Shown in pieces: positions 10,185 to 29,640 of a stretch of DNA of 64,000 nucleotides. A program made the position numbers and the translations under genes. The first letter of the stretch is position 1. Each line of letters starts with the position of its first letter. This DNA is from an uncultured Bdellovibrio sp. (GTDB lineage Bacteria; Bdellovibrionota; UBA1018), in assembly GCA_964490895.1 (NCBI GenBank), contig CAZBEI010000065.1, forward strand, positions 1,192 through 65,191, in the 5' to 3' direction. The notes beneath the pieces are model-generated. The model ran no database searches and had not been told where the DNA came from. It was given only the letters and a program-made list of their open reading frames with translations.

Positions 10185-10200
10185 TGGCATTGATTGTGCA
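10185..10200 (+). promoter_or_regulatory. Sigma-54 (-24/-12) promoter-like motif TGGCAT-N5-GTGCA upstream of uspA
   Basis: GG and GC separated by the canonical 10 nt. Lies 37 bp upstream of the ATG at 10237. Confidence 0.45.
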
Positions 10201-10236
10201 TACTCTTCTTAAAAATACGGGAGGTGTTAAGACAAT

Positions 10237-11152
10237 GAAAATTCTTTGGTGCTTAGATGTATTTGAAGAAAAAAATGATATTTACAATCGCACAATCAAT
10301 GTTTTAGAGAATATTACAAAAGAACACGCAAGCTCAATTGAACCAGTCTACCTATTGAGCCCAGAGCAATTCGAGCTGCCTGTTGAGTTTACTCCGTCTT
10401 GGGTAGAGCACTATCATCCAAAAGCAAAAAAAGCAGCCGAGAATAAACTTAAGGAGCATCCCCTGCCTGGTCTTTTGCCTATAAAAATTATAGGCCACGA
10501 AAAGCCCTCAATTTCGGGGTCCATTACTTCGTTGCTCAATTATGCTAAAAAAGAAAATGCGAACCTCATTGTAGTTGGATCCCACGGCAGAAGGGGGCTC
10601 TCAAGACTTTTCGTGGGGAGCTTTGCAGAGGCACTGCTCCTTCGGTCTCCTCTTCCTATTATGATTGTGGGACCCCACTCCATAAATGTTGACGGATTTA
10701 AAGAAATCCTATTCCCCACAGATTTGGGTGAAAATTTTTATGGTGTTTTTAGAGAAGTTTTAAAATTAGCTGGGCAATTAAAAACAAAGCTTACTTTACT
10801 TCATGTCATTCCTAACCCCATTGAGCCAGTGGTACAAAGTGGCGCTTTTTTATTAGGTGGAGGCTGGGTACCGATTTCAGGTTATCTGGAGAAAGAGGAG
10901 AAAAAGCAGAGAGAAATTGCTGAGCGTTGGATCAGAAAAGCAAAAAGCCATGGGATAGACGCTCAGTTTGTTTTAGATTATTCAAAACATGGGGTATTAT
11001 CTGCTATCCACGAGCATGCAAAAAACCATTGTTTTATTGCAATGGCTGCTCAAAGTGGGCCTCTTTCGGCTGCATTTTTAGGAAGTATCACCAGGCAAGT
11101 TGCAAGGTCAGCTTCTTGTCCAGTATGGTTAGTAAGAGAAAATGTGTTATAA
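10237..11152 (+). CDS. Universal stress protein, tandem UspA domains
   Basis: RBS GGGAGGTG 9 nt upstream of the ATG at 10237; the track ORF starts earlier at 10184. Two Usp domains with ATP-binding-like G-x2-G-x9-G(S) (VVGSHGRRGLSRLFVGS). Confidence 0.7.
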
Positions 11153-11162
11153 AGGATAGAGA

Positions 11163-12599
11163 ATGATTACTCCCACAAAAGGAAAGGTCCTCATAGTAGA
11201 CGACGACATGGAGATGAGATCACTTCTTGAGGATTATCTCAAGAGTGAAAACTTTCAAGTAAAAAGCTTTGCAAATGGCGTGGAGGCCCTTGAAGACTTA
11301 GAACTCCAGAGCTCTGAGACTGATTTAATTATTTCAGATATTAAGATGCCCCAAATGGATGGGTTAGAACTTACTTCAAAGCTCACGCACATTTTACCCA
11401 AAATTCCGATTCTATTAATCACTGCTTTTGGAAGCATCGAAACAGCACTTGAGGCCATGAAAAGAGGCGCATTTCATTATATTGTAAAACCTTTCAAACT
11501 TGCCGAAATGGCCGTGCATATTGAGAAGGCTTTAGAACATAGAAGACTTCAAAGAGATAACGAGGCTCTTCGAAAAGAGATAAAACAGTCCTGGGGTTTA
11601 GGAAATATCCTTGGAAAAAGCCAGGCCATGAAATCGGTCTTTGATTTAGTAACTCGTGTTTCTCAAACAACCGCGAATGTGCTCATCATGGGTGAAAGCG
11701 GGACAGGCAAAGAAATGGTAGCTCGCGCCATACACAAAACGGGCCCCAGGGCTCAAAAGCCTTTTGTTGCTATCAATTGCACGGCTATTCCCGAAACTCT
11801 TTTAGAGTCAGAGCTCTTTGGACATGCAAAAGGGTCTTTTACGGGAGCGCATCAAAGAAAACAGGGACTCTTCGAAGAGGCTGAGGGTGGGACTCTCTTT
11901 TTAGATGAGATTGGGGATATGGATGGCACTCTTCAATCTAAACTACTCAGAGTGATTCAAGAAAAGAAAGTCAGAGCTGTTGGAGACAACACGCTTCGAG
12001 ACATCAATGTAAGAATTATTGCAGCTACTCATAAAGACTTAAAAGCAGCGATGAAAGATGGCCGCTTTCGTGAAGATCTTTACTACCGCTTGAGCGTTAT
12101 TCCTATTTTGATTCCGCCCTTAAGGGAACGAAAAGAAGATATCCCATTATTGGCAGAGCATTTTTTAAAAAAATACTCTGCTACAAATAACACAAATGTG
12201 CGTGGATTCACAAAAAGCGCGATGAATAAACTCCTCACCCTGCGTTGGGAAGGGAACGTGCGCGAACTTGAAAATATTATTGAAAGGGCTGTTGTTTTGA
12301 GTTCTGGCACTTTCATTGACGAAAGGGACTTGCCCTCTCCAGAAACTCAAAATCCAGAACAGTTTTTTTCTTCTTCTACAGGAGACTTCCCTACGATCGA
12401 TCAACTCGAAAAAAGATACATGGGTCTCGTGCTCGAAAAATCAGGAGGCAGAAAAGACAAAGCAGCACAGATTTTAGGGATTAATAGAAGGACTCTCTAC
12501 CGCAAAGAAAGAGAATATGGCTTTATTACAGAGCAAGGCGATGAAATCCAAGAACAAAGTGATAAAATCCAAGAGGAGGAGGAGACTAAAAAACTTTAA
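11163..12599 (+). CDS. Sigma-54-dependent Fis-family response regulator (NtrC-like: REC + AAA+ sigma-54 activator + HTH)
   Basis: REC domain with phospho-acceptor Asp (LIISDIKMP). Walker A GESGTGKE. GAFTGA-type loop GSFTGA. C-terminal Fis-like HTH. 10-bp gap after uspA, so cotranscribed. Confidence 0.85.
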   Translation: MITPTKGKVLIVDDDMEMRSLLEDYLKSENFQVKSFANGVEALEDLELQSSETDLIISDIKMPQMDGLELTSKLTHILPKIPILLITAFGSIETALEAMKRGAFHYIVKPFKLAEMAVHIEKALEHRRLQRDNEALRKEIKQSWGLGNILGKSQAMKSVFDLVTRVSQTTANVLIMGESGTGKEMVARAIHKTGPRAQKPFVAINCTAIPETLLESELFGHAKGSFTGAHQRKQGLFEEAEGGTLFLDEIGDMDGTLQSKLLRVIQEKKVRAVGDNTLRDINVRIIAATHKDLKAAMKDGRFREDLYYRLSVIPILIPPLRERKEDIPLLAEHFLKKYSATNNTNVRGFTKSAMNKLLTLRWEGNVRELENIIERAVVLSSGTFIDERDLPSPETQNPEQFFSSSTGDFPTIDQLEKRYMGLVLEKSGGRKDKAAQILGINRRTLYRKEREYGFITEQGDEIQEQSDKIQEEEETKKL

Positions 12600-13776
12600 A
12601 CCAAATTGTAAAAACACTTCCCACTCCCAATTCACTCAGGACAGAAATTTCGCCACCCATTTCCTTTAGCAATTGAACAACAATTGCTAAACCCAAGCCT
12701 GTACCTTCTCCCACGTCTTTTGTAGTAAAAAAAGGTTTAAAAAGCTTATTTGTATTTTTTGGGTCAATCCCGCAACCGGTGTCCTTGATTTCAATGGCCA
12801 CTTTTTGCCCATGAACACTTGCTTTAATGTACAGTTGGTGTCCTGTTTTTCTTCCATCTCGAATCGCCTTATGAATGGCTTGAATCGCGTTCATCACTAA
12901 ATTTAAAATCGTTTGTTCTAAACGCCCATAATCTGCTTTTACTTTTATTTCGTCTGAGATGTCTGTCTTAATTTCTACTCCATCTTCTTTAAGATTTTGC
13001 CCTACGAGAGACAAAACCTCGTGCACAACTTGTGTAATGCTCACTTCTTCAATACGAAAATCACTAGTCCTTCGCCCCATTCTTAAGAGTGAACGAATGA
13101 GCTTAGAAATTTTATCAATTTGAGAAATAATAATTTCCAAATCTTTTTTAGGTAATTCGTCTTTGGACTGTAATATTAAAAACTCAGCTCTTCCACGAAT
13201 CACTCCAAGCGGGGTGCCCACTTCGTGCGCAAGACCACTCGAGAGCAACCCAATGGAGGCAAGTCGGTCTTGATGAAAAATTTTTGCCTCAAGTTCTTTT
13301 TTCTGAGTCATGTTTAGAGCCACACCCATGTAGCCTAAAATTTCGCCCATTTCTGACTTAAATGGAGTAATGGTCAAAAATACGGGCACATACGTTCCAT
13401 CTTTGGCACGATTGACGAGCTCGCCTTTCCAATGTGCAATTTTAGGGTCCCGAATTTTTGACCACATTTCTCTGTAAAACTCTTTGGATTGGAACCCAGA
13501 ATGCAAAAGTCCGGGAGTTTGCCCAATGGCTTCTGCATTAGAATAACCATAAGTTTGGCTCCAAGCAGGGTTGACGTAGACCAGATGACCGTCTTTGTCA
13601 CTAATCATGATGGTTTCATTGCTGTCTTCGACACATCTAAAAAAGATATTTTTGGGATCGAAATTAATCTCTAAGGGCATGAGTCCTTTTAACATCATTT
13701 CGACGTTCTTGACAGCACTTGTCTTATAAGGACGAGAAAAAATGTCCTTTTTTTTTGATTTTTGGGACAAAAACAC
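12586..13776 (-). CDS. Soluble PAS-domain sensor histidine kinase
   Basis: PAS domain (MISDKDGHLVYVNPAWSQTYGYS), HisKA H-box LAHEVGTPLG, and HATPase_c G-boxes (DTGCGI, GTGLGL). Its 3' end overlaps the response-regulator stop by 14 bp, convergent. Confidence 0.8.
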   Translation of the reverse strand: MFLSQKSKKKDIFSRPYKTSAVKNVEMMLKGLMPLEINFDPKNIFFRCVEDSNETIMISDKDGHLVYVNPAWSQTYGYSNAEAIGQTPGLLHSGFQSKEFYREMWSKIRDPKIAHWKGELVNRAKDGTYVPVFLTITPFKSEMGEILGYMGVALNMTQKKELEAKIFHQDRLASIGLLSSGLAHEVGTPLGVIRGRAEFLILQSKDELPKKDLEIIISQIDKISKLIRSLLRMGRRTSDFRIEEVSITQVVHEVLSLVGQNLKEDGVEIKTDISDEIKVKADYGRLEQTILNLVMNAIQAIHKAIRDGRKTGHQLYIKASVHGQKVAIEIKDTGCGIDPKNTNKLFKPFFTTKDVGEGTGLGLAIVVQLLKEMGGEISVLSELGVGSVFTIWFKVF

Positions 13777-13814
13777 CTCCCCCTGGTTTTCATGAAGCCT
13801 GAAACCGGGTCACT

Positions 13815-13830
13815 TGGTTTCACTTATGCA
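13815..13830 (+). promoter_or_regulatory. Sigma-54 promoter-like motif TGGTTT-N5-ATGCA upstream of cytochrome c
   Basis: GG..GC spacing is correct. Shares TTATGCA at -12 with the nirK motif. Lies 40 bp upstream of the ATG at 13870. Confidence 0.4.
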
Positions 13831-13869
13831 ACTTTGGTGCTAAAGTAAAAGTCTAATAGGAGATCAAAA

Positions 13870-14226
13870 ATGCACAAAATAAAATGCTTGGTTGGATTGG
13901 GTTTTATATTTTTGTATCAGGGAGCTTCGGCAGGTCCTCCAAAGTCTTCGCCCGAACTTATTGCAAAAGGAAAAGCCTCTTATGTGACCAACTGTTTGAC
14001 CTGTCATGGCGAAAATGGCGATGGCAATGGTCCTGCTGGACAGTACATGAATCCAAAACCTAGATCCTATACAAAAGATAAGTTTAAAAAGGGAGAGAAA
14101 CCTGAACAGGTTTTTAAAACCATTACAGCAGGGATTGATGGAACAGCAATGACTGGGTTTGGTCATTTGCCAGAAGACGAAAGATGGGGCCTTGTGTATT
14201 ACGTGCTTTCGTTTAAGAAAAAATAG
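13870..14226 (+). CDS. Class I c-type cytochrome (secreted, mono-heme), likely electron donor to NirK
   Basis: Signal peptide, CLTCH haem motif, distal Met region. RBS GGAG 9 nt upstream. Confidence 0.7.
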   Translation: MHKIKCLVGLGFIFLYQGASAGPPKSSPELIAKGKASYVTNCLTCHGENGDGNGPAGQYMNPKPRSYTKDKFKKGEKPEQVFKTITAGIDGTAMTGFGHLPEDERWGLVYYVLSFKKK

Positions 14227-14230
14227 CTAC

Positions 14231-14590: not shown

Positions 14591-14725
14591 ACCTCTCTCT
14601 TATTCATAAAATGGGCCAAGCAAAAAACCTAATTATTTTACTCTCTCAAGCTTAAAACAGAACCACAGATGGGACTAAATGTCACTCGCATGAGGCATAT
14701 TTTCTTCCTGCCGTGGCTTCTATTT

Positions 14726-14746
14726 TTTAAATCTAACGGATTTAAA
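14726..14746 (+). promoter_or_regulatory. Perfect 8-N5-8 palindrome TTTAAATC-taacg-GATTTAAA upstream of nirK (candidate regulator or IHF-type site)
   Basis: Seen directly in the sequence, 12 bp upstream of the -24 element of the nirK promoter motif. Confidence 0.3.
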
Positions 14747-14757: not shown

Positions 14758-14773
14758 TGGCAAGGTTTATGCA
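14758..14773 (+). promoter_or_regulatory. Sigma-54 promoter-like motif TGGCAA-N5-ATGCA upstream of nirK
   Basis: Canonical GG/GC spacing, 31 bp upstream of the ATG at 14804. Confidence 0.45.
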
Positions 14774-14803: not shown

Positions 14804-15829
14804 ATGCGTTTGGCCATTTGTTTTTTTGTGTTTATGTCTGGAAATTTATATGCGGGGGATAATCCTGACCCCTCAAAAATGATTTTTGGCCCACCCCCAG
14901 CCATTGTTCATAATAAAATTTTAGAAGGTCCTGTGATGCAGGGAGCAACGCTCCTTCCATTTGCTCCTAAACTCTCTGGTGAGCGAACCCTCAACGTTCG
15001 CTTGGATGTCACTCACAAAGTTCAAGAACTTGCAGATGGAGTTAAAATGATGGTTTGGACGTTTGGAGATTCTGTGCCAGGTCCAACTATTCGAGTCAGG
15101 CAGGGGGATCGAATTAAATTCACAATGGCAAATCGCAGCACTGAAACTGCAGCCATTACTCCTCCCATGCCTCATTCGATGGATTTTCATGCCTCTATGG
15201 TGAGCCCACAAGACAAATTTAGACCCATCTCACCGGGGCAAACATTAGAATTTGAATTCGTCGCAAATTATCCAGGGGTATACATGTACCACTGTGGAAC
15301 ACCCATGATTTTACATCACTTAGCAATGGGAATGTACGGCGCTGTCATTGTAGAACCCAAAGAAGGGTATCCCACAAAAGTAGACCGCGAGTATGTTCTT
15401 GTTCAGTCAGAATTTTATCCCCAAAAAAATGTGAATAAAAATGGAAAGAAAACAAGTGTGGTCGAATTAGACATGAACGCAGTTATCCACAAACAGGCCT
15501 CTATTGTTGCTTTTAATGGAAAGGCCTTTCGCCACCGTGACGAACCGCTCAAGGCAAAAGTAGGAGAAAGAGTGAGGCTCTTTGTGCTCAATGCAGGACC
15601 CAGTGGGACTTCGAGTTTTCATGTTGTTGGAACCATTTGGGACCGTGTTTGGCTTGAGGGAAATCCAAGCAATGAACTTCGAGGAGGTCAATCTGTGCTT
15701 TTAGGCGCAAGCAACTCAGCTATCGTTGAATTTATTATTCCAGAAAAAGGAAAATACATTATGGTCGATCATGAATTTGCTGACGCTAATGCAGGAGCAC
15801 TGGGATTAATTGATGCAACAGGAGATTAG
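14804..15829 (+). CDS. nirK: Copper-containing nitrite reductase NirK
   Basis: 341 aa with signal peptide. Cu-ligand blocks PHSMDFHA and YMYHCGTPMILHHLAMGMYGAVIVEP match the type 1 / type 2 copper sites of NirK. RBS AGGAGGG. Confidence 0.85.
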   Translation: MRLAICFFVFMSGNLYAGDNPDPSKMIFGPPPAIVHNKILEGPVMQGATLLPFAPKLSGERTLNVRLDVTHKVQELADGVKMMVWTFGDSVPGPTIRVRQGDRIKFTMANRSTETAAITPPMPHSMDFHASMVSPQDKFRPISPGQTLEFEFVANYPGVYMYHCGTPMILHHLAMGMYGAVIVEPKEGYPTKVDREYVLVQSEFYPQKNVNKNGKKTSVVELDMNAVIHKQASIVAFNGKAFRHRDEPLKAKVGERVRLFVLNAGPSGTSSFHVVGTIWDRVWLEGNPSNELRGGQSVLLGASNSAIVEFIIPEKGKYIMVDHEFADANAGALGLIDATGD

Positions 15830-16619: not shown

Positions 16620-16738
16620 ACTTATATGTGCAAATATTTTTCAAGTCTCTTAATTATGGCGGGACATTTTGCCGCAAAATTTGTTTTTTTGTCTCATCAT
16701 GATTTTAAAAAACTCTTTTACTGCTTAAATAATTACAT

Positions 16739-16754
16739 GGCACTGATTATGCAT
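16739..16754 (+). promoter_or_regulatory. Sigma-54 promoter-like motif TGGCAC-N5-ATGCA upstream of the PLP-decarboxylase gene
   Basis: Near-consensus -24/-12. Lies inside a ~170-bp block duplicated from the uspA upstream region. Confidence 0.5.
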
Positions 16755-16821
16755 GTTAATCTTAAAAATAGGGGGCGAACATAACAAATTCTTTGGTACT
16801 TCATTCATTTGAAGCAAAAAA

Positions 16822-18546
16822 ATGACATCAAAGTGTAATACAAAAGACATTGCACTCAAGGGATTTTTCTTGGGCCCACAAGCTGAAAATGGCCCTTGGG
16901 TGTTAGAATTTATTCAAAGAGTTTTTGAGCGTTGGTTTAAGTGGAGAAGATCTCTTTATCCTGCAGATGGGAAAGGGATATCAAAATCAGATCAAAACAC
17001 CTCTGACTTTTTAGAAAGAAATCAGAATTTCAAGCTGCAGCTGGAGCGCCTCCTTTTACGTTTTGAAAACGAATTGCCAAAATTTTCTCCTCGGTACATG
17101 GGTCATATGTTTTCTGAAATTTCTCTCCCCGCACTGTTTGGACATATTGTGACCTTACTTCACAATCCCAATAATCTTTCTGGAGAATCTTCTCGAGTTG
17201 GGACTCAACTCGAAAACGAAGCCATCGGAATGTTAGCCCAAATGGTTGGTTATTCGGGAGCATGCAAAGGTCATTTTACTTCTGGGGGAACCCTTGCAAA
17301 CTTTGAAGCCATCATTCGCTCTCGAGCTCGTATTTTTTCTTGGCTTGAGCAGGGAGCCCTTGTTAAGCAAAACAACCTAAAAGAATTTGATCTTTTTTCT
17401 GCTTCACACATGGGTTGGGAATGTTTTGATCGATATCCTAAAACATTCGATGGACTCCATCTCTCTGAAAGTAATCCCTGGGAGCTTGCAAAAAAAATCG
17501 GATCTATTTTTCAGACTCCTTTTAGTGGCGGGGTCTTGCTCGTTCCAGAGAATAAACATTATTCGTGGAAAAAAGGAGTGTCTATTTTAGGACTAGGCGA
17601 TGAGGCTTTTTGGCCAATTTCATTAAACTCAGAAGGAAAACTTTGCACCCAGAGTCTCAATCAAAGAATCCATCAGGCAAGAAAAGAAAATCGGCCTATT
17701 TTTATGGTTGTCTCTGTCGCTGGAACTACGGAGCTTGGAGAAATTGACCCTGTTTCAGAAGTTCAGGAAATTTTAAATCATTGGAAAACAAACCATGGAG
17801 TTCATATTTGGCATCATGTGGATGCTGCTTATGGTGGATTTTTTTGCACACTCAAAAACCAGAACAAAAACCTCGCGGCACTTTCACAAGTAGACTCCAT
17901 TACGTTAGACCCACATAAATTAGGATATGTTCCGTTTTCATCGGGAGCTTTCTTAGTCAAAGAAAGGAGAAATTATTACATCAAGTCTTACGAAACTCCT
18001 TATCTCCAGTTTAATGAAAATGAAGACCCAGGTCCATTTACAATCGAAGGTTCTAGATCCGCAGCAGGAGCGGTGGCCACTTGGTTGACTGGGAAAACAA
18101 TTGGATTTGATGAAAATGGCTATGGACGAATTTTAGGTCGCACTTTGGACATTAAGCAAAATTTAGAAAAATTACTTCAAAAATCAAATTTGCCCATTCA
18201 AATCGCACCCCACACAGATACAAATATTCTTTGCTTTTGCGTGGTGGCCGCTCAAGGAGAACTCCTTTCGAAAACAAATGATAAAACCTTACACATCTAT
18301 GAGGCTCTTTCTGCAAAGGCAAGAGGCCCATTTATAGTCTCAAAAACAAAGCTTTATTTTAAGTCCTACAGACAGTACCTGGAGTCTTTTATTGGCTCAT
18401 GGCATGGAAAGATCGATCAGGACTCCCTTGTTTTAATCCGAATGTGCTTAATGAATCCCTTTTTTGATTCTGTAGAAATGGACGTCCAGTTTTCTCGAGA
18501 ATTTGTAGAGTGTATACGAAATTTGACTAAATATGAGGTAGGATAA
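16822..18546 (+). CDS. Pyridoxal-phosphate-dependent decarboxylase (group II, fold type I)
   Basis: 574 aa. Contains SGGTLANFEAI and DPHKLGYVP, the PLP-lysine block of group II decarboxylases. Confidence 0.7.
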   Translation: MTSKCNTKDIALKGFFLGPQAENGPWVLEFIQRVFERWFKWRRSLYPADGKGISKSDQNTSDFLERNQNFKLQLERLLLRFENELPKFSPRYMGHMFSEISLPALFGHIVTLLHNPNNLSGESSRVGTQLENEAIGMLAQMVGYSGACKGHFTSGGTLANFEAIIRSRARIFSWLEQGALVKQNNLKEFDLFSASHMGWECFDRYPKTFDGLHLSESNPWELAKKIGSIFQTPFSGGVLLVPENKHYSWKKGVSILGLGDEAFWPISLNSEGKLCTQSLNQRIHQARKENRPIFMVVSVAGTTELGEIDPVSEVQEILNHWKTNHGVHIWHHVDAAYGGFFCTLKNQNKNLAALSQVDSITLDPHKLGYVPFSSGAFLVKERRNYYIKSYETPYLQFNENEDPGPFTIEGSRSAAGAVATWLTGKTIGFDENGYGRILGRTLDIKQNLEKLLQKSNLPIQIAPHTDTNILCFCVVAAQGELLSKTNDKTLHIYEALSAKARGPFIVSKTKLYFKSYRQYLESFIGSWHGKIDQDSLVLIRMCLMNPFFDSVEMDVQFSREFVECIRNLTKYEVG

Positions 18547-18965
18547 AAGGGCCTCAAAAAGCAAAAAACTGCCACTCCAGAAACACACACATAAAGCCAC
18601 AGGCTCATTGCCCAGCGTGCGATCCTTCGATGGTGTGTATACCTTTTGGTCATCGCAAAGAACAAGCTAGTGACCACTAGTGGAGGAACCGCTGCTGCAA
18701 ATATTGTGTGTGTAAAAAGGATAGGGAAGTAGATGGACTTTATAACCCAACTCCCCTCAAAACCGACGTGTCCTACATGCATGTGGTAAATTCCATAGAG
18801 TCCGAGAAAAAGTAGAGATAAAACAAAGGCTGTGAGTACAAAAAACCGATGCACCATGGATCGTTTTTTTCGAATGAAAAAATATCCCAGTATAAGCAAA
18901 AGAGCGCTCGTTGAGTTCAGTCCTGCGTTGATGGAGGGTATGCTGTAAATGTTGATCTCACCCAT
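18417..18965 (-). CDS. DUF420-family membrane protein (accompanies caa3 oxidase clusters)
   Basis: Four TM helices. Start taken at MGEINIY with RBS AGAGGTGG; the track ORF extends to 19010. Its 3' end overlaps the convergent decarboxylase by 130 bp. Confidence 0.55.
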   Translation of the reverse strand: MGEINIYSIPSINAGLNSTSALLLILGYFFIRKKRSMVHRFFVLTAFVLSLLFLGLYGIYHMHVGHVGFEGSWVIKSIYFPILFTHTIFAAAVPPLVVTSLFFAMTKRYTHHRRIARWAMSLWLYVCVSGVAVFCFLRPFYPTSYLVKFRIHSTNSRENWTSISTESKKGFIKHIRIKTRES

Positions 18966-19142
18966 CGCCACCTCTTCCAAATTTTCTATATATCCAAAAA
19001 GCCAAGCCACACATCACCAGCGGCAGCACACTCAATAAGACTGTGACTAGAAAATAGGCATCCAAAGTGCGCCTGGGAAATCCTTGACCTGCACAAACAC
19101 TGCAAGCCCATGAGTCGTTCACTAGGACGTCCCAAAACAGAC

Positions 19143-19676: not shown

Positions 19677-19682
19677 AATGAT

Positions 19683-20579: not shown

Positions 20580-20594
20580 ATTTTTTTCCTCAAT

Positions 20595-22280: not shown

Positions 22281-22286
22281 TCTCCT

Positions 22287-23270
22287 TCATTTTACAGTCT
22301 TCAAATATTCCACGATAGCGTCTACCTCACCCTCAGTGAGGCCACCCCGCTGGGGTGGCATAAGGGGTTGGTATCCTTTTACGATGTCTACATTTGGTTC
22401 TAGAATCGATCGTCGGATATAGGCTTCGTCTGCAATAATTTCGTGTTCTTTTCCACCTGTGAGAACCACTGTTTTTCGTCCAAAAATTCCTTTATAGGAT
22501 GGACCCACAACTTTTGCTCCATCAACGCTGTGACAAGCGAGGCAGCCTTTTATTTTTACAAGCTGCATTCCTTTTGTTGCTGTTCCCAGACTGAGATTGT
22601 TCTCGTCAGGTAAATCAGGATTGTTGCGCCAACGGTCATAGTCTTCTTGCGACTCGACGATCAGTGTCCCACTCATTACGGTGTGTCCAACTCCACAAAT
22701 TTCAGCACAGGCAATCTCGTATTGTCCAATCTTATTGGCCACAAACCAGCCTGTGATGGTTCGGCCCGGCACAACATCTTGTTTGAGCCTCAGGCTGGGA
22801 ACCCAAAAACTATGCAGTACATCTTTAGATTCGAGATGAAAAACGATGGTCTTATTTACCGGCACGTGAAAGTCGTTTATTTTTTTTAGTTCGCCTTTGC
22901 TCTCAAACCTGCCGTTATTGTCAGGATAAGTAAAAAGCCACGAAAATTGTTGAGCAGTGACTCTTACAACAATGTCTCCTTTTGGAGTTGAGCCCTTAAT
23001 CTTTTCCCATGCATCAGTAGTCCGAAAGTCGATATAGAAATCCATTACAATGATAATAAGTACGGGAACAATAACCCATTTTACTTGGTGCCAAGAATTT
23101 CCAAGGATGTAGTTTGCTTTTTCTCCAGATTGCCTGCGAAATTTCACTAAAGAGTAAAAGAATATCGCTAGGACTACAAAAAGGCAGACTCCAACCAAGA
23201 TGGTGATCAAAATGGCAAGAGAGTCAATCTCAGAACCAAAACTTGATACATTTTCGGGCATGAACATCAT
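22287..23270 (-). CDS. coxB: Cytochrome c oxidase subunit II with fused C-terminal cytochrome c domain (caa3-type)
   Basis: CuA site H..CAEICGVGHTVM. C-terminal CLACH haem c motif. Confidence 0.85.
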   Translation of the reverse strand: MMFMPENVSSFGSEIDSLAILITILVGVCLFVVLAIFFYSLVKFRRQSGEKANYILGNSWHQVKWVIVPVLIIIVMDFYIDFRTTDAWEKIKGSTPKGDIVVRVTAQQFSWLFTYPDNNGRFESKGELKKINDFHVPVNKTIVFHLESKDVLHSFWVPSLRLKQDVVPGRTITGWFVANKIGQYEIACAEICGVGHTVMSGTLIVESQEDYDRWRNNPDLPDENNLSLGTATKGMQLVKIKGCLACHSVDGAKVVGPSYKGIFGRKTVVLTGGKEHEIIADEAYIRRSILEPNVDIVKGYQPLMPPQRGGLTEGEVDAIVEYLKTVK

Positions 23271-24004
23271 ACAATCTTTCTTTCAAATTCATCCAAAGAC
23301 CCATAAAGCTGACTTACATTTTCTAAAATAAAAATCCGATCTTGAAATCTATCGACTTGAAATTCCTGGTTTCGGATGATTTCTAAATTGAACGGAAGGA
23401 CTTCGGGTTCATCACTTAAGGCATAGCGACACTCAGCAAATGACGAAGCAATTCCCGCTCCAAAGATGCGTTTTCCTTTTGGAGTTTTGATCAATGCAAA
23501 TTCGACAGTGAACCAAAAGAGGCGTTCAAACTGACGAAGGATCTCAGGGTTATTTACAAATCGTGAGGCTCTTTCTCCAAACCTATGGCAGAAATCTGCA
23601 TAAGCAATGTCTGTAAAAAAAGGGAGATGTCCATAGAGATCATGAAATACGTCAGGTGCTGGCGTGTAGGACAAATCCTTTGGGTCACGAATAAAATTAC
23701 CTATCGGAAACTCCCGCCTTGCAAGCATGGGGAAAAAATCGATGGCATCTTCTAGTCCTTCGACTGGAACTCCTCTAAAGCCGGTTTTTTTTTGGAGAAT
23801 AAAATTTACTGTATCGAGGTCAGGAACGTGTTTAGAGCTGAGGCCTAAACTTTTCACTCCGTCTGAAAAAAGATCGACAATTTGCTCTGCTCTTTTTGGG
23901 GTCTGGCGTTCAAAGAGTAAGCTCCAGACCTGGTGCTCTTCGGGCGTAAACTTTCGAAAAACAACTCCACCCATATTACCGTTCTCCAGATTCGAACATT
24001 CCAC
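23267..24004 (-). CDS. phhA: Phenylalanine 4-hydroxylase (pterin-dependent aromatic amino-acid hydroxylase)
   Basis: PDVFHDLYGHLPFF, the iron-binding 2-His motif of the aromatic amino-acid hydroxylase family. About 245 aa, bacterial PhhA size. Confidence 0.75.
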   Translation of the reverse strand: MECSNLENGNMGGVVFRKFTPEEHQVWSLLFERQTPKRAEQIVDLFSDGVKSLGLSSKHVPDLDTVNFILQKKTGFRGVPVEGLEDAIDFFPMLARREFPIGNFIRDPKDLSYTPAPDVFHDLYGHLPFFTDIAYADFCHRFGERASRFVNNPEILRQFERLFWFTVEFALIKTPKGKRIFGAGIASSFAECRYALSDEPEVLPFNLEIIRNQEFQVDRFQDRIFILENVSQLYGSLDEFERKIV

Positions 24005-25067
24005 GCCTCATTTGATCGCGTTCGATAGATTTAAAGAGCGCTAGAAAGTTGCCCTCGCCAAATGAGAAATAATTTTTTCTCTGGATAATTTCAATGAAAA
24101 TAGGACCTATCAGGTTTTTAGTGAAAATTTGGAGAAGGTAGCCATTTTTATCTCCATCTACTAAGACGTTGTGGCTTTGGATACTTTTGTGGTCTTCGGT
24201 GACATTGGGGACACGGTTAAAAACTTCGCGATAATAGTCATCGTCAATATCTAGCATTTCTATAGAGGTCCCACTCAATCTATCAAGTGAGGCCAGAATA
24301 TCGCTGGTCAGAAAAGCAAGGTGTTGGATGCCTGGGCCATTATATTCTCTGAGATATTCGTTGATTTGTGATTTTTCTTCGTCTGCTTCGTTAATGGGAA
24401 TGCAAAACTTTCCACAAGGAGAGCGTAAAGCATAGGACTGAAGTCCAGTTTTCATCCCTCGGATATCAAAGTATCGGACTTCGGTGAAACCGAAGATCGT
24501 TTTATAAAACTCTGCCCACTCTCGCATCGTTCCTTTGGCTACATTGTTTGTAAGATGATCGATGGACAGAAATCCTTTGGACGGGACAAGATCGGGCTTA
24601 AAAAGATTTTCAAACTGTAGTTTTTCGTAAAGGTCTTGGTCATTGTAGTTTTCTATAAAATAAATGGGACTATCCCCAATCCCATAAATTGCAGGACACT
24701 CTATGCCTGCGGCGGTAATATAATCCCCGCCCCGGTAAACCCTTGCTCCTTTTGCGATGGCTGTATTCAAAGCGTGAGCAGCATTTTTCACTCGCCATCC
24801 CATAGAACAGATCGACGGTCCATGGACATGTCCAAAGCGAGTTCCAGAAGAGTCGGGCTCATTATTCAAAAGAAAACGGATGTCATTTTGTTGATAGTAG
24901 TCGATTTTTCTCGTCTCGTGGTGCTTGACTCTAGAAAAACCAAACTCTAAGAATAATTCGTGAAGTATGCCTGGATTTCGAGATGTAAATTCTACAAACT
25001 CAATTCCGTCTAATTCCAGTGGATTGCTTGTCACTGACTTCTCCTTTATTTCTGCCAGCTTTTCCAA
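23976..25067 (-). CDS. hppD: 4-hydroxyphenylpyruvate dioxygenase
   Basis: 363 aa, two vicinal-oxygen-chelate modules. C-terminal GPGIQHLAF and EIIQR..FGEGNF match the HPPD signature. Confidence 0.8.
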   Translation of the reverse strand: MEKLAEIKEKSVTSNPLELDGIEFVEFTSRNPGILHELFLEFGFSRVKHHETRKIDYYQQNDIRFLLNNEPDSSGTRFGHVHGPSICSMGWRVKNAAHALNTAIAKGARVYRGGDYITAAGIECPAIYGIGDSPIYFIENYNDQDLYEKLQFENLFKPDLVPSKGFLSIDHLTNNVAKGTMREWAEFYKTIFGFTEVRYFDIRGMKTGLQSYALRSPCGKFCIPINEADEEKSQINEYLREYNGPGIQHLAFLTSDILASLDRLSGTSIEMLDIDDDYYREVFNRVPNVTEDHKSIQSHNVLVDGDKNGYLLQIFTKNLIGPIFIEIIQRKNYFSFGEGNFLALFKSIERDQMRRGMFESGER

Positions 25068-26158
25068 TAGTCACTCAGTTCTACAGTTTCGGCGTGCGGG
25101 GTTTTCTTGAGAGTGTTTCGCGCATCAATCATGACCGCCACCTCATCAGTTCTCTGTATTTCTCTGGCTCTTTCGATTGCTTTTCGTTGTGGACCATGTT
25201 GAATACCTTGAGGATGAAAGGTGATCATCCCCTCCTTAATGCCCGCCCGACTGAAAAACTGGCCGCTGTGATAAAAAATCACTTCATCAAAGTCGATGTT
25301 GAGATGATAAAACGGCACTTTCATCGCTTGAGGATCCCCATTTTCAAGGGGCCGAGGAAGAAACGTGCAGATCACAAAATTGTTTGCAACAAATGTCGTG
25401 TGAGCAGAGGGTGGAAGGTGGTAACGGTCTGCAGATACAGGTCTAATGTCTCGAACATTAAGTTGCCATACTGATAATGTGCCTTTCCAACCTACTGCAT
25501 TGAGCGGATGAAAGGGATATAAAACGCGCGTGATCTCTCCGCAGTGTTGAATTCTGAGTTCATACTTTCCATTTGATTTATGCTCCATTTTTTCTGGCTC
25601 TGGTGTTGGAACACGAATCACTGCTGGATCAAATAGAGCGTGCTGTCCCAGCATCCCTTTTTCTGGAAAACAAACTTCGCTATAGGCTTCTATCAGTAGG
25701 GAGTGGGTTTCTTCCCGAGGATCAAATCGATAAACTGTACCTCTAGGAATAACAAGGTAGTCCCCAGGTTCGTAGACAAGAGGACCAAAGTCTGTTTCAA
25801 TTCGACCTTTGCCTGCATGGATGAAAAAAATTTCATCAGCGTCAGCATTTCTAAAGAAATACTGCATCTGGTTTTTTAGTCGGAAAAAAGAAATGCGAAC
25901 ATCGTCATTGTAGAGATAGCTTTGTCTGGCTTCAAGGTAATCTTGAGAAATATCCGTCACAGATCGAGCAAGATCGTAGGCTTGAGGCTTGAGGGGGCCT
26001 TCAATTTCAAGCCACTCAACAAGGGGTCGAGTACGGTAAAAGTGGGCGTACCTCCCTGAAAAACCATTTCTGGCATACTCCTCTTCGCTGGTTCCCTCTG
26101 GTATGCCCACATGAGCTTGATGAGCCACCTTCCCTTTGATGTGGGGGATTTGCATTAG
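25046..26158 (-). CDS. hmgA: Homogentisate 1,2-dioxygenase
   Basis: Cupin-fold HGO blocks (FFRNADADEIFFIHAGKG, FHPQGIQHGP). Start placed at MQIPHIKG with RBS GGAAAGAGGA. The longer track ORF (to 26290) would overlap the divergent LysR gene. Confidence 0.75.
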   Translation of the reverse strand, partial: LMQIPHIKGKVAHQAHVGIPEGTSEEEYARNGFSGRYAHFYRTRPLVEWLEIEGPLKPQAYDLARSVTDISQDYLEARQSYLYNDDVRISFFRLKNQMQYFFRNADADEIFFIHAGKGRIETDFGPLVYEPGDYLVIPRGTVYRFDPREETHSLLIEAYSEVCFPEKGMLGQHALFDPAVIRVPTPEPEKMEHKSNGKYELRIQHCGEITRVLYPFHPLNAVGWKGTLSVWQLNVRDIRPVSADRYHLPPSAHTTFVANNFVICTFLPRPLENGDPQAMKVPFYHLNIDFDEVIFYHSGQFFSRAGIKEGMITFHPQGIQHGPQRKAIERAREIQRTDEVAVMIDARNTLKKTPHAETVELSDYWKSWQK

Positions 26159-26261
26159 AATCCTCTTTCCTTTGGAAACAAGTATAGAAAATTTTCTGTA
26201 TATTAAAAGTATAGAAAACAGTGTAAGACTGTAAAAAAAACTCACAAAGAGGAAACTACCC

Positions 26262-27179
26262 GTGCATATCACTTTGGAAGAAGCCCGCACTTTGGATGCT
26301 GTTGTTCAGTTCGGAAGTTTTTCGAAAGCAGCACAAAATCTTCGCAAGAGTCATTCTGCTATCATCTATTCGCTGAAATCCTTAGAAACACAAACGGGTT
26401 TGCGCATTCTCGACAGAACGCAGTATCGAACCACGCTCACGCCCACAGGGAAACGCGTGTGGGAGCAGTGTAAAAAACTTTTGTCTTCTGAGCAAGATTT
26501 TACACACCTTTGCCGGAATCTTGGCTCTGGATGGGAGCCCTACCTAAAAATTGTGGTCGACGGACTCATTCCATTCGATTCCATTTTGCAGGCGCTCGAA
26601 AAACTAAGCCAACAGAAAGTTCCCACCAAAATCATGCTCTATGAGGAGTTTCTAGGTGGCGTGGAAAACAGTTTTATAGAAAATAGTGCGGATGTTATGA
26701 TCTCGGTGATTCCTCCAGAAAAAACTGTGCTTGAACCCATAAAACTTTGCCCGATCAGTAGCTACTTGGTCGTGAACAAGGAGCACTTCTTGGCTAAAAC
26801 ACGCAAGCGCCTGACGATTAGCCAGCTGCAAGAGTATCCCTTTCTCACCGTACGAGGATCGGATACAAGACTCAATCTCACAACCTCTGCCTTCGAGGAA
26901 TCATCGGCTTATCACCTGAACAATTTTCAGTCGAAGAAAGCAGCCATTCTCAAAGGGCTAGGTTTTGGTTGGCTACCGGAGTATTTGATCCATAAGGAAC
27001 TTGCAAAGAAAGAGCTTAAAATTGTTTACTGGGAGAAAAGCAGCGCGCACACTTACTTTCCTCATATCTATTGTCGAGGAACAAAGCATTTAGGTAAGGC
27101 TGGCTTGTCGTTTCTAAATGCATTGCTTTCATTTCAGCAGGTACCGAACTGTGAAGAATGTGCTCTTAAAACAAAATAA
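26262..27179 (+). CDS. LysR-family transcriptional regulator (divergent from hmgA-hppD-phhA)
   Basis: N-terminal HTH (LDAVVQFGSFSKAAQNLRKSHSAIIYSLKSLE). GTG start with RBS AAGAGGA. Confidence 0.8.
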   Translation: MHITLEEARTLDAVVQFGSFSKAAQNLRKSHSAIIYSLKSLETQTGLRILDRTQYRTTLTPTGKRVWEQCKKLLSSEQDFTHLCRNLGSGWEPYLKIVVDGLIPFDSILQALEKLSQQKVPTKIMLYEEFLGGVENSFIENSADVMISVIPPEKTVLEPIKLCPISSYLVVNKEHFLAKTRKRLTISQLQEYPFLTVRGSDTRLNLTTSAFEESSAYHLNNFQSKKAAILKGLGFGWLPEYLIHKELAKKELKIVYWEKSSAHTYFPHIYCRGTKHLGKAGLSFLNALLSFQQVPNCEECALKTK

Positions 27180-27267
27180 AAAAGCAAGATTGTGACAAAA
27201 AGGTATAATTAGAGAATTATTGTCTCATTTTTTTTCCAACATTAGAAACTTTATGCTTAATCCCACC

Positions 27268-27283
27268 TGGCATATTATTTGCA
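27268..27283 (+). promoter_or_regulatory. Sigma-54 promoter-like motif TGGCAT-N5-TTGCA (inside repeated element copy A)
   Basis: Near-consensus -24/-12. A TTGTGACAA palindrome lies ~75 bp upstream (27189-27197). Confidence 0.5.
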
Positions 27284-27301
27284 TCAGCACTGTACTTAAA
27301 A

Positions 27302-28057
27302 ATGCAAAAAAAAGTGGCCTCTAAAATTTTTGTAGTCAGTGCTATTTTTTTCCTAAGCGCCAATGCGACTGCACTCGAACAAACTGTCACACAAGGCATC
27401 AAGTCACTGGATTGCCAGAAAGAAATTTTAAGTCAACTCTCTCAGTGGGGAACCAAAAATGAGTGGATGACTCTGAAGCGTCCATTTGAAGACGAAAATT
27501 CCTACTTGAGTCCCACTCACGAAATCGGCGTTTGGGTCAAAATTCAATTTCAAACCCCACATGCACTTACCGCTTATCGAATGAATACAGAGCAAACAGA
27601 AAAAATCAATTGGGACAAAAAATGCCAAGCAACTTCTCAAATTCATGACACAAAAGGGGCGGAAGAAAAAAAAGACCCGGATTTATTGAGTGACAGTGAC
27701 TTAAAAGTCTTGATCAAAGATAATCCTTCTGGAATTTTATTTGTTTGGACCCCTCACACCCCTTGCTCGATCAAAGGGCTGAGAAATATCCAAATGGCTG
27801 CAAAAACACTCGGAGTTAAACTTTTTCCACTTTTACACCCCGCCTCCAACAGAAAGAGGGCTTGGCAAATGATCAGAGAGCTGCAACTTCCAGTCGATCA
27901 GTTGAGAGAAGTGGCGTCTTTAGAGCTTATTTTGAGAGGACTCATCAATCATGCTCCATCGATGATTGTGTTTTCGAAGGGAGAAATTAAAACTCCGATC
28001 TTGCGAGGCCCACACAGTTCTCTTAGATACCTCAACTTTGTAAAAGAAACCCTATGA
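27302..28057 (+). CDS. Secreted hypothetical protein
   Basis: Signal peptide; no recognised domain. Starts with MQKK, shared with the duplicated element. Confidence 0.45.
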   Translation: MQKKVASKIFVVSAIFFLSANATALEQTVTQGIKSLDCQKEILSQLSQWGTKNEWMTLKRPFEDENSYLSPTHEIGVWVKIQFQTPHALTAYRMNTEQTEKINWDKKCQATSQIHDTKGAEEKKDPDLLSDSDLKVLIKDNPSGILFVWTPHTPCSIKGLRNIQMAAKTLGVKLFPLLHPASNRKRAWQMIRELQLPVDQLREVASLELILRGLINHAPSMIVFSKGEIKTPILRGPHSSLRYLNFVKETL

Positions 28058-28067
28058 GGACAGGAAC

Positions 28068-29510
28068 TTGACAATGAAAAATATTCTCTCATGCTTGATA
28101 GTAGGGTTATTTTTTCTAAAACCCTCTCTAGCATCTTTGCCAAGCTATTGTTCTTTGCCTTCAGTGTATACAAAAATTTTACATACTTTTCCACGAGACG
28201 GTAAATTTTTAGACAATATTGCTTGGCTTTCAAATCCTGTCCCCAATTCTGTAGGACTTCCCTATCTCATTAGTTTTAGTCAGTTCATGGAAGATGGCAA
28301 AGACAAAAACTATATTCTCAATTTAGCCTCTGGAAAAACAGTCACTATTCCGGGTCAAGGAGATCCTGTGGTCACTCCAGACGGAAAATTTTTGACTATT
28401 CCAGGAGCTCACTCTGGAGAAAGCCAACTCCTTATTTTTTTAACTAAAACTGTTTTGAGGACTTTATTAAAAAAAGAGGCCGGCATTAATAGTCTCGAAA
28501 AAATAAAGCCCCTTTTTGTAGATCCAAAAGTCGAGGGGTATTGCCAGTCCTTTGGAGTATTGCCAAGCAAAAAAGGCACAATCCGATACAGACTCCTACA
28601 CACAGAAGGAGGCGGGCCCTTTCAGCTCACGGAGTACGAAGTTCATGAAAAAAACGGAAAATTTGAATTTAAAAATCTCGGGGCCATGCAGGTCTGTAGC
28701 AACATGCCGAATTCAGTCCACGACAATGGTACCGCGATTCTCTCAAAAGATGGACGCTATGTCTCTCTCTATGACTCTCAAGCACAGTCTACAAAGATTT
28801 TTGAACTCGAAGTAGCACAGGGAAAATGCTCTTGCAAAGAAGCCGTGGACTTCGGGTTTCCAACAGGAAGAGTGGATTTTAGCTACGATGGGAAAAAAAT
28901 TACTTTTCATGTCAATTTCTTAGGTATTGATTATGCAGACAATTATGTTTTAAAAGTCCCAGCATCTAAAATAAAAGACGTTTTTGTGGCCGAGCTTGAT
29001 TATAAAAATGGAAAAATAACCGGCATCAAAAAAATGGCGCGCTTGACAGCTTCTCAAAAAATGGGCGAAGGCTCTTATTTTCCGACTTTTTTGCCCAATG
29101 GAAAAATCTTTTATGTCTATCAAGACAACAGTGACCAACAGGACCGAAAATATCGACTTGAAGTCGTAGACTCTCGAAGTGCTAAGTATGAGGAAAATTT
29201 ATTTTCAAAACTCGACTCAGAAAAAGAGCAGGCTCGGTTTTTATCCAAAGTAGCATTGGGAAGACTTTGGTCCAAAGCCTGCGAACAAAAAATACTCACC
29301 CCCATTCAGTCAGCTCTGTACGCCATGAGTTTAGATACAAAATCCTGTCAATCTGTTGTGCGAGGTTCTTGGTCAAAATATAAATCTCAGATTTTAGTTG
29401 AGTTAACAGCTAACCGGAATGAAACGAGCTCAAGACTTAAAAAAATCAAGGACTCTGTTTTTAGACGTAAGATTTTTCAAGAGACACTCTTGGCGGCTTG
29501 TAGGCAATGA
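28068..29510 (+). CDS. Secreted protein with TolB/WD40-like beta-propeller repeats
   Basis: Signal peptide. Repeated DG-hydrophobic blades (TPDGKFLTIPG, SKDGRYVSLYD, SYDGKKITFHV, LPNGKIFYVYQD). Confidence 0.5.
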   Translation: MTMKNILSCLIVGLFFLKPSLASLPSYCSLPSVYTKILHTFPRDGKFLDNIAWLSNPVPNSVGLPYLISFSQFMEDGKDKNYILNLASGKTVTIPGQGDPVVTPDGKFLTIPGAHSGESQLLIFLTKTVLRTLLKKEAGINSLEKIKPLFVDPKVEGYCQSFGVLPSKKGTIRYRLLHTEGGGPFQLTEYEVHEKNGKFEFKNLGAMQVCSNMPNSVHDNGTAILSKDGRYVSLYDSQAQSTKIFELEVAQGKCSCKEAVDFGFPTGRVDFSYDGKKITFHVNFLGIDYADNYVLKVPASKIKDVFVAELDYKNGKITGIKKMARLTASQKMGEGSYFPTFLPNGKIFYVYQDNSDQQDRKYRLEVVDSRSAKYEENLFSKLDSEKEQARFLSKVALGRLWSKACEQKILTPIQSALYAMSLDTKSCQSVVRGSWSKYKSQILVELTANRNETSSRLKKIKDSVFRRKIFQETLLAACRQ

Positions 29511-29624
29511 GTGTGCTCAAAACACTATCCATATAAAAAGCAAGATTGTGACAAAAAAGCATTTTTTTGAGAATTATTGTCCCGTTTTTTTAAAACGTTA
29601 GAAACTTTAATGCTTAACATTGCC

Positions 29625-29640
29625 TGGCCTATTACTTGCA
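29625..29640 (+). promoter_or_regulatory. Sigma-54 promoter-like motif TGGCCT-N5-TTGCA (inside repeated element copy B) upstream of the Mo-enzyme operon
   Basis: Near-consensus -24/-12, 17 bp upstream of the ATG at 29657. The TTGTGACAA palindrome lies ~75 bp upstream (29544-29552). Confidence 0.5.

Follow-up and report, generated by a model that had tools for sequence, protein, structure and literature searches.

A predicted autoregulated sigma-54 regulon around an NtrC-family activator gene in an uncultured Bdellovibrio

We analysed a stretch of 64,000 nucleotides from an uncultured Bdellovibrio sp. of the Bdellovibrionota lineage UBA1018 (GenBank assembly GCA_964490895.1, contig CAZBEI010000065.1, positions 1,192 to 65,191 of the forward strand; hereafter, the window), in which sigma-54-type -24/-12 elements precede several operons around the genes of a two-component system. 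The GC content of the window is 41%, and its nearest relatives are metagenome-assembled genomes (MAGs) of Bdellovibrionota/Oligoflexia. The gene calls agree with the Pfam and NCBIfam annotation, except that three start codons were corrected. Comparison loci are denoted by L-numbers (L001, L082, L167 etc.), L001 being a copy of the window's own locus.

The regulator operon begins with a gene encoding a tandem-domain universal stress protein (Pfam Usp; 10235..11152, plus strand). Its start is the ATG at 10235, preceded by the Shine-Dalgarno sequence GGGAGG; the program-called GTG at 10184 overlaps a promoter motif and is not the start. The next gene (11163..12599, plus strand; Pfam PF00072, PF00158 and PF02954) encodes an NtrC-family response-regulator enhancer-binding protein (EBP), hereafter the activator, with D59 in the REC domain, the Walker A motif GESGTGKE, DEIGD, a GSFTGA loop and a C-terminal HTH_8 domain. 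The nearest solved structures are NtrC4 and NtrC1 of Aquifex. The initial annotation had named this protein as the only EBP in the window and paired it with a soluble PAS histidine kinase, and both statements hold: no second EBP was found in the window, and the adjoining gene encodes a soluble PAS-HisKA-HATPase kinase (Pfam; 12586..13698, minus strand; likely start ATG 13698) with one PAS domain, presumably the cognate sensor. The two genes are convergent, with a tail-to-tail overlap of 14 bp (12586-12599). The kinase shows its highest similarity (40-46%) with the hybrid REC-kinases of L166 and L167, the value for the stand-alone PAS kinases of these loci being 27-31%.

Divergently from the usp gene lies a set of tightly packed same-strand open reading frames (ORFs), presumably an operon (4810..9991, minus strand), led by a CBS gene whose true ATG at 9991 is preceded by the Shine-Dalgarno sequence AAGGAG. 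In addition to several proteins of no assigned family, without a Pfam match, it encodes an FMN_bind protein (7139-7684) and an ApbE flavin transferase (5720-6685), and the presence of the latter two suggests a flavinylated extracytoplasmic redox module. On the plus strand there follow the genes of a c-type cytochrome (13870-14226), a copper protein (14804-15829) and a pyridoxal phosphate (PLP)-dependent decarboxylase (16822-18546), and then two genes of no assigned family (27302-28057, with a signal peptide, and 28068-29510), whose products have no Pfam or NCBIfam match. The copper protein had been labelled nirK; at 197 bits against the NCBIfam cutoff of 296 bits, it can be called only NirK-like.

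The last plus-strand operon considered here (29657..41226, the extent being judged from gene packing) encodes a 269-aa protein, a molybdoenzyme and the genes of molybdenum cofactor (Moco) biosynthesis. The enzyme genes are those of the alpha subunit (30456-33941; start ATG 30456, with the Tat signal KRRDFLK), the four-cluster beta subunit (33950-35080), the heme-b gamma subunit of the EB_dh family (35094-35954) and a NarJ-like chaperone; moaA, moaC-mog, the MOT1 transporter gene, moeA and moaD come after the chaperone. The earlier description of the enzyme as NXR/pNAR-like (NXR, nitrite oxidoreductase) is borne out: the alpha subunit is similar over its full length to NxrA of Kuenenia (7b04, E 2e-274) and far closer to it than to perchlorate reductase or NarG, the enzyme scoring below the NCBIfam subfamily cutoffs. 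By these sequence relationships it is predicted to be of the periplasmic NXR, or type II dimethyl sulfoxide (DMSO)-reductase, type.

Six GG-N10-GC motifs had been proposed as -24/-12 promoters, and all of them are present, the one reported at 16739 beginning at 16738. We scored them with two position weight matrices (PWMs): one built from the published sigma-54 consensus with approximate, author-set weights, by which ~128,000 positions were ranked, and an off-window one trained only on 20 promoters from other genomes. On the plus strand, the sites are P1 before the usp-EBP operon (TGGCATTGATTGTGCA, 10185..10200; 12.6 bits), P2 before the cytochrome c gene (TGGTTTCACTTATGCA, 13815..13830; 8.7 bits, the best in its intergenic region), P3 before the NirK-like gene (TGGCAAGGTTTATGCA, 14758..14773; 16.5 bits, the top score of the window with the consensus PWM), P4 before the decarboxylase gene (TGGCACTGATTATGCA, 16738..16753; 15.4 bits), P5 before the two genes of no assigned family (TGGCATATTATTTGCA, 27268..27283; 16.3 bits) and P6 before the molybdoenzyme operon (TGGCCTATTACTTGCA, 29625..29640; 13.1 bits). 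All six are intergenic and oriented with the downstream gene, and the motif ends 34, 39, 30, 68, 18 and 16 bp, respectively, before the likely start codon. A seventh site, missed by the initial annotation, is ATGGCCTAGAATTTGCT on the minus strand (10040..10056; 12.4 bits), ~50 bp upstream of ATG 9991 and hence ahead of the divergent CBS operon (P_CBS). The invariant GG and GC are exactly 10 bp apart in all seven sites.

The consensus PWM placed five of the sites within the top 8 of ~128,000 positions (12.6-16.5 bits). With the off-window PWM, P6 had rank 1, P5 rank 2 and P_CBS rank 4 of 128k, the ranks of P3, P4, P1 and P2 being 36, 48, 83 and 466. Relative to the extended consensus YTGGCACG-N4-TTGCW, six sites are well above background, while P2 is weak, since TGGTTT replaces TGGCAY. 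Among the 20 promoter-bearing intergenic regions, only the six sites proposed initially reach at least 8.7 bits on the correct strand. For the strict pattern TGGC-N8-TGCA, 1.98 occurrences are expected in 128 kb (both strands) and 6 were counted, five of which are sites from the initial annotation. In contrast, a loose consensus with 3 mismatches allowed is uninformative, its 286 matches in the window against 267 expected being no excess over chance. Thus, the strict-pattern and PWM tests exceed the background where the loose one does not, five of the six proposed sites are clear sigma-54-type matches, and P2 is a weak candidate.

Several other sequences in the window resemble sigma-54 sites. 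Overlapping the region upstream of the cytochrome c gene, the minus-strand sequence TTAGCACCAAAGTTGCA (13827-13843) is near-consensus, spoiled by AG in place of GG. Two sites are intragenic, one within the alpha subunit gene (31537-31553, plus strand; 14.6 bits) and the other within an NMO-like gene (44179-44195, minus strand; 16.0 bits), 511 bp upstream of moeB/ThiF. No half-site pair of the kind described below was seen upstream of the latter. In L082 a site of 14.9 bits (22834-22850, minus strand) directly precedes the moeB orthologue, and by this parallel the site at 44179-44195 might be a real internal promoter.

Shared upstream activating sequences (UASs) had also been anticipated, and pairs of half-sites TGTCYC/GRGACA were found at all sites, with starts 12, 21 or 29-30 bp apart and 45-90 bp before the GG of the -24 element. 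P1 and P_CBS have a common UAS, GGGACA-N24-TGTCCC (10096..10131), to which GGGACA-N23-TGTCTC before P4 (16661..16695) is paralogous. P5 is preceded by GTGACA-N23-TGTCTC (27192..27226) and P6 by the paralogous GTGACA-N24-TGTCCC (29548..29583). The NirK-like gene has the palindrome TGTCAC-N6-GAGGCA (14680..14697), with one mismatch to TGTCNC-N6-GNGACA; its distance from the GG, 78 bp, matches that in L088 and L090. The pair before the cytochrome c gene, TGTCCT-N15-GGGACA (13743..13769; 21 bp start to start), is less certain, as its left half also forms a terminator-like hairpin. The latter, AAGGAC-N8-GTCCTT followed by a T-run (13728-13760, plus strand), lies where there is no plus-strand gene to terminate.

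The everted arrangement GNGACA-N23/24-TGTCNC occurs exactly 4 times in 64 kb, while the mean over 500 dinucleotide shuffles is 0.078, and each copy begins 76-89 bp before the GG of P1, P4, P5 or P6. In an unbiased 6-mer count of the sequence upstream of the six sites, TGTCCC came first once poly-A words were set aside (5 versus 0.24 expected). TGTCNC/GNGACA is present in 6/6 site regions and in 2/14 other promoter-bearing intergenic regions (Fisher p ~7e-4, computed by hand). Scanning the window with a single half-site PWM was unspecific, as 30 of the top 40 matches were in coding sequence; the half-site is informative only in combination with a sigma-54 site. We also considered a single palindromic UAS, TGTCNC-N6-GNGACA, for all promoters and rejected it: only the NirK-like gene has it, with one mismatch, the other pairs being everted or with N15. 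Across the loci, the orientation of the half-sites varies, and the spacing is 12 bp for inverted pairs, 21-22 bp for direct or inverted ones and 29-30 bp for everted ones, which approximates one, two and three helical turns. Such a pattern suggests binding on the same face of the DNA, either by DNA-binding domains on flexible tethers or by separate dimers, each on one strong half-site.

Some of these promoters are copies of each other. The regions of P1 and P4 (10060-10260 versus 16625-16850) are 74% identical and those of P5 and P6 (27150-27330 versus 29500-29690) 82% identical, each over ~200 bp, and in both pairs the similarity continues into the coding sequence downstream, covering its first codons. 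P5 and P6 precede genes of unrelated proteins, and in the decarboxylase copy a remnant of the usp 5' end persists, its start codon having been lost. Neither pair has lost its UAS half-sites or its -24/-12 elements; the P1/P4 pair has also kept the ribosome-binding region, while the spacer between the UAS and the promoter has diverged and contains an 11-bp indel. Retention of these elements amid a diverged spacer is the pattern that would be expected of functional elements. The regulon seems to have grown partly by copying of a ~200-bp cassette comprising the UAS, the promoter and the first codons before new genes.

Orthologues of the activator form more than 100 clusters in Bdellovibrionota/Oligoflexia (69-75% identity), and the recognition region of the helix-turn-helix (HTH) domain, GRKDKAAQILGINRRTLYRK, is invariant across them. 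In L166, L167 and L168, orthologue loci for which long flanking sequence was taken, there are many intergenic sigma-54 sites (12-20 bits), often as divergent pairs with one common UAS, before the genes of Usp, CBS, PfkB and P-type ATPase proteins and before the activator's own operon. Upstream of these sites, the most enriched 6-mer is GTCTCA (13 versus 0.78 expected, p 3e-12), and the half-site consensus is wTGTCYCA, with pairs mostly 21-22 bp apart. We counted composite elements, defined as a sigma-54 site of at least 11.5 bits with a phased half-site pair, in all loci. There are 12 of them in 114 kb of activator-orthologue loci (two of the 12 in L001), 1 in 1.22 Mb of loci with non-orthologous EBPs and 4 in 1.15 Mb of NXR-like loci. 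Thus, the elements are ~100 times denser around the activator orthologues than in the control loci, which ties the UAS motif to this activator, as the assignment of the sites to the resident regulator had implied.

The layout around the activator operon is also conserved. Divergent CBS and Usp genes with two sigma-54 promoters sharing one UAS recur in L167 and L168, where the Usp orthologues (40% identical) are likewise behind sigma-54 promoters with a UAS. Autoregulation had been suggested from the promoter of the activator's own operon; since sigma-54 sites precede the activator or its operon in L002, L003, L167 and L168, positive autoregulation appears to be conserved, and the UAS motif stands ahead of this operon both in the window and in L168. 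A perfect palindrome, TGTCTC-N6-GTGACA, also lies 83 bp before the site TGGTCT-N5-TTTGCT in L003 (3109-3208; activator orthologue of 69%), in front of a gene of GTP-dependent phosphoenolpyruvate carboxykinase.

We consider it probable, at roughly 0.7, that these sites form one sigma-54 regulon, autoregulated and controlled by the resident activator. The sequences show which motifs are present, how their frequencies compare with expectation, how far they are conserved and that they accompany orthologues of the activator; from this we infer the binding of the activator to the motif, the dependence on RpoN, the operon extents and the signal. Most likely, seven gene clusters are switched on together by the neighbouring two-component activator. 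The control would be exerted by the soluble PAS kinase (12586-13698) and the activator (11163-12599). Upon phosphorylation, the latter would assemble on the TGTCYC/GRGACA pairs 45-90 bp upstream of the -24 GG, whose spacing of 12, 21 or 29-30 bp is close to whole helical turns, and, using ATP, would open closed complexes of RNA polymerase with sigma-54 at the seven promoters. The predicted targets are its own usp-EBP operon (positive autoregulation), the divergent CBS/FMN_bind/ApbE operon, the NirK-like gene, the PLP decarboxylase gene, the two-gene operon of secreted proteins of no assigned family, the operon of the NXR-like molybdoenzyme and Moco biosynthesis and, probably, the c-type cytochrome gene.

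A number of observations weigh against this reading. P2 is weak (8.7 bits, rank 466 with the off-window PWM), and the left half-site of its UAS pair overlaps the hairpin described above. In P1, P3 and P4 the T at -14 is replaced by A or G, and their off-window rank is lower as a result. Because P1/P4 and P5/P6 are paralogous copies, the six sites represent only four independent origins. The half-site layout varies, being everted with N23-24 in four cases, inverted with N6 in one and with N15 in one, and in the orthologue loci the half-sites are mostly direct, 21-22 bp apart; a rigid dimeric HTH would not bind all these layouts alike. In P5 and P6, GTGACA-N17/18-AATTAT could also be read as a weak sigma-70 promoter (-35/-10, 9/12 matches for P5). 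The loop of the activator is GSFTGA rather than the canonical GAFTGA; GSFTGA is invariant in all aligned orthologues. Neither an rpoN gene nor an RpoN box lies in the window; genomes of the Bdellovibrio-and-like predatory group are reported to encode sigma-54 (PMC13147790). Finally, orthologues of the NirK-like and decarboxylase genes elsewhere lack such promoters, so the case for their membership is drawn only from this genome.

These observations bear on three other explanations. The promoters and the UAS could be real and yet bound by another EBP encoded elsewhere, the resident activator controlling only its own Usp/CBS neighbourhood or something else. The binding by the activator is deduced only from proximity and co-occurrence, genomes of Bdellovibrionota encode several EBPs (L013 has two paralogues of 44-47% identity), L013 contains a perfect TGTCAC-N6-GGGACA palindrome with no close activator orthologue within the locus, and the variable geometry of the half-sites could reflect more than one binding protein. 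We nevertheless regard this explanation as improbable, given the ~100-fold enrichment of the motif around orthologues of this activator relative to loci with other EBPs, its presence ahead of the operon of the activator itself, in L168 as well as in the window, and the invariance of the HTH across orthologues.

A little less probable still is that only a subset is functional: P5, P6, P_CBS and perhaps P1, P3 and P4 would depend on sigma-54, while the cytochrome c site and maybe the duplicates would be decayed or fortuitous, their genes being transcribed from sigma-70 promoters, possibly controlled by the LysR encoded nearby or by an FNR-type regulator. The score of P2 fits this, as do the LysR gene directly upstream of P5 and the regulation of NXR-like operons elsewhere, with a Crp/FNR gene beside L085 and no sigma-54 site in L083-L087. 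The same explanation could draw on weak sigma-70-like matches in several of the intergenic regions, except that their number only modestly exceeds that in shuffles (49 versus 36 +/- 6.5) and none is above 9-10/12; moreover, the half-site is present in 6/6 regions, and in the duplicated copies it is the spacer that decayed, with the UAS and the -24/-12 elements kept. As for mere chance matches in AT-rich intergenic DNA, with the UAS a by-product of recent duplication, we strongly disfavour it and consider it very improbable. Although the three-mismatch consensus is not enriched and duplication accounts for two of the four dyads, the strict-pattern and PWM enrichment is concentrated at co-oriented intergenic positions, four dyads stand against 0.078 expected, and the elements recur independently in unrelated genomes of 46-58% GC.

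If the sites form a single regulon, the composition of the latter would differ among lineages. The NXR-like alpha subunit has more than 100 homologues of 70-80% identity in the phylum, and we examined 84 NXR-like loci. The operon was seen in more than 100 protein clusters of Bdellovibrionota/Oligoflexia, some matches being labelled Myxococcota, Planctomycetota or Sericytochromatia, and its order elsewhere is a 266-aa protein of no assigned family, alpha, beta, gamma and delta, after which Moco genes usually come. In about one third of the loci with enough upstream sequence, a sigma-54 site directly precedes the first gene of the operon (L082, L088, L090/091, L092/093, L103, L108, L109 and L115), and this gene is an orthologue of the window's 269-aa protein at 29657. 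In two of these, L088 and L090, the sigma-54 sites score 18.3 and 16.2 bits and have a perfect TGTCTC-N6-GRGACA palindrome 78-79 bp ahead of them, the half-site and the distance being equal to those of the window's NirK-like promoter. Other NXR-like lineages have other regulators: in addition to the Crp/FNR gene beside L085, a hybrid kinase is a neighbour in L082. In L092, L121 and L082 the NXR-like operon contains the cytochrome c orthologue or has it as a neighbour, which functionally supports the co-regulation of the cytochrome c gene here despite the weakness of P2.

We also looked for conserved sigma-54 promoters before orthologues of the decarboxylase, NirK-like and cytochrome c genes, and only the cytochrome c gene of L082 has a candidate (10.9 bits). 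Of the proposal that the nitrogen-oxide genes are co-activated by one EBP, the shared promoters and UASs stand, while the conserved core of the regulon consists of Usp/CBS stress genes. As the decarboxylase and NirK-like orthologues lack such promoters and the NXR-like operons have sigma-54 sites in about one third of the loci, the nitrogen-oxide genes look like lineage-specific recruits to this core.

The wiring had been called unusual; however, it has precedents in NmpR of Myxococcus (PMC11841059) and PcrR/RpoN (PMC3884062), and the regulon is best placed among the sigma-54 two-component regulons already known for hypoxia or respiration; its wiring is not categorically new. NmpR of M. xanthus, whose oxygen-utilisation regulon includes CBS, USP and cbb3 oxidase genes, is hypoxia-induced, autoregulated and sigma-54-dependent (PMC11841059). 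As in the NmpRSTU system, an NtrC-like response-regulator EBP would act at sigma-54 promoters from paired upstream sites, with positive autoregulation (predicted here) of an operon beginning with a CBS or USP gene. Genes of CBS and USP proteins are in the regulon, and those of cbb3 oxidase and P-type ATPase are in the orthologue loci, no sigma-54 promoter with a UAS being found at the cbb3 oxidase cluster near the activator orthologue in L167. Both L166 and L167 encode a PAS kinase together with a hybrid REC-kinase; a single REC protein may or may not accompany them, there is no globin domain, and the gene order in L167 is the same as in nmpU-T-S.

The differences from NmpRSTU concern both the input and the output. 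The NmpR site is GCGCA-N5-TGCGC as opposed to the TGTCYC half-sites here; a search for the former gave no such pair in the window and one possible pair in the high-GC L106. NmpU is a heme/protoglobin kinase feeding a phosphorelay of the hybrid NmpS and NmpT, whereas here there is one soluble flavin-type PAS kinase, with neither a hybrid kinase nor a further REC protein in the window. Among the targets here are the NXR-like molybdoenzyme with Moco genes, the NirK-like protein, cytochrome c and the PLP decarboxylase. The best Myxococcota relatives of the activator are 40-41% identical, which is the generic level for the family; functionally, NmpR would be the closest counterpart, and no identity with it is claimed. 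In L106, a relative with 69% GC, two GCA-N5-TGC sites 5 bp apart precede a sigma-54-like site at the NXR-like operon (9036-9126). Their resemblance to the NmpR consensus hints that the operon is under an NmpR-type activator there, though in GC-rich DNA they may be due to chance.

In Azospira suillum PS, pcrABCD is under PcrR, PcrS, PcrP and RpoN; its expression needs the activator and a sensor kinase together with sigma-54, and the operon has an RpoN-type promoter (PMC3884062). Here, similarly, a REC-AAA+-HTH_8 activator with a sensor kinase and sigma-54 would act on a periplasmic enzyme of the type II DMSO-reductase family. However, the alpha subunit scores 917 bits with NxrA 7b04 and 181 bits with PcrA 4ydd, no chlorite dismutase gene was found among the annotated ORFs of the window, the kinase is soluble while the Pcr sensor is a membrane protein with periplasmic domains, and the regulator lies 17 kb from the enzyme genes and would serve many other operons. 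A perchlorate-reductase island, suggested by the alpha-beta-gamma-delta order and the sigma-54 regulator, was rejected, the alpha subunit being NxrA-like, cld absent from these ORFs and the kinase soluble.

DosR, controlled by DosS/DosT in Mycobacterium tuberculosis, is a NarL/LuxR-type regulator acting at sigma-70 promoters. The likeness to it is in content and logic only, without any sequence relationship, and comprises, across the orthologue loci, tandem USPs, CBS, HSP20, PfkB, a cation P-type ATPase, nitrate-related genes and redox/oxygen sensors. The link of USPs with the DosR dormancy regulon is cited in PMC11841059 and PMC2682197. As regards the DNA motif, the GlrR (QseF) sites at glmY's sigma-54 promoter are TGTC-N10-GACA (PMC3045617), multiple sites being upstream of the promoter as here; palindromes of the TGTCTC-N6-GAGACA type (L088, L090, L003) and TGTCAC-N6-GAGGCA of the NirK-like gene fit this pattern. 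However, the activator is not a GlrR equivalog (410 bits against the NCBIfam cutoff of 763), most sites here are non-palindromic pairs, the palindrome being found only before the NirK-like gene and with one mismatch, and the target genes are unrelated.

We give roughly even odds to low oxygen or a reduced redox state as the signal. This is argued by analogy, since the nearest solved relatives of the kinase PAS domain are the FAD-binding PAS domains of the redox sensors MmoS (3ewk) and NifL (2gj3, 9qq6), and since the content of the regulon parallels that of the hypoxia-induced NmpR; the neighbourhoods of the activator orthologues contain genes of Usp, CBS, cbb3 oxidase, P-type ATPase, HSP20 and PfkB proteins. 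Bdellovibrionota/Oligoflexia are known mainly for aerobic predators. A broader proposal, which we put forward only tentatively and consider rather doubtful, is that they hold a phylum-wide sigma-54 programme for low oxygen or dormancy, whose activator reads single TGTCYC half-sites in any orientation if these are helically phased (12, 21, 30 bp), rather than a fixed NtrC dyad, and that some lineages captured nitrogen-oxide respiration (NXR-type enzyme, NirK-like protein, cytochrome c) by ~200-bp cassette copying. In the literature we found no description of a sigma-54, hypoxia or NXR regulon of this sort in Bdellovibrio or Bdellovibrionota.

If correct, this would give a testable regulatory map for a poorly studied phylum, consisting of one kinase, one activator, one half-site and the target operons. 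Some Bdellovibrionota would then induce Usp/CBS proteins, an NXR-type enzyme with its cofactor pathway and a NirK-like protein under oxygen limitation, having a capacity to respire or survive without oxygen that is not usually ascribed to this phylum. It would also be a clean case of regulon growth through duplication of enhancer-promoter cassettes. The half-site motif can be used already for regulon prediction in hundreds of MAGs.

The nitrogen-oxide module had been described as island-borne. Such a reading is not supported, because the GC content is flat (0.36-0.445 along the window), there is no tRNA or Rfam match in the window, and the activator and the NXR-like operon are both phylum-wide; a genomic island was rejected on the first two grounds. 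Both the regulator and the enzyme operon have a wide vertical distribution in the phylum. The flanks of the region contain MerC-HMA, MerT, MerR, a Cus-like RND efflux system (OEP, HlyD and AcrB families) and an AbiEi antitoxin, these metal-resistance and mobile-type genes (2040-2858, 3262-3834 and 45943-53122) lending it a mobile flavour without a compositional or tRNA signature of an island. Between P4 and P5, a minus-strand block without a sigma-54 site (18417-26290), apparently outside the regulon, encodes a DUF420 protein, an aa3-type cytochrome oxidase, phenylalanine hydroxylase, HPPD and a homogentisate dioxygenase-like protein.

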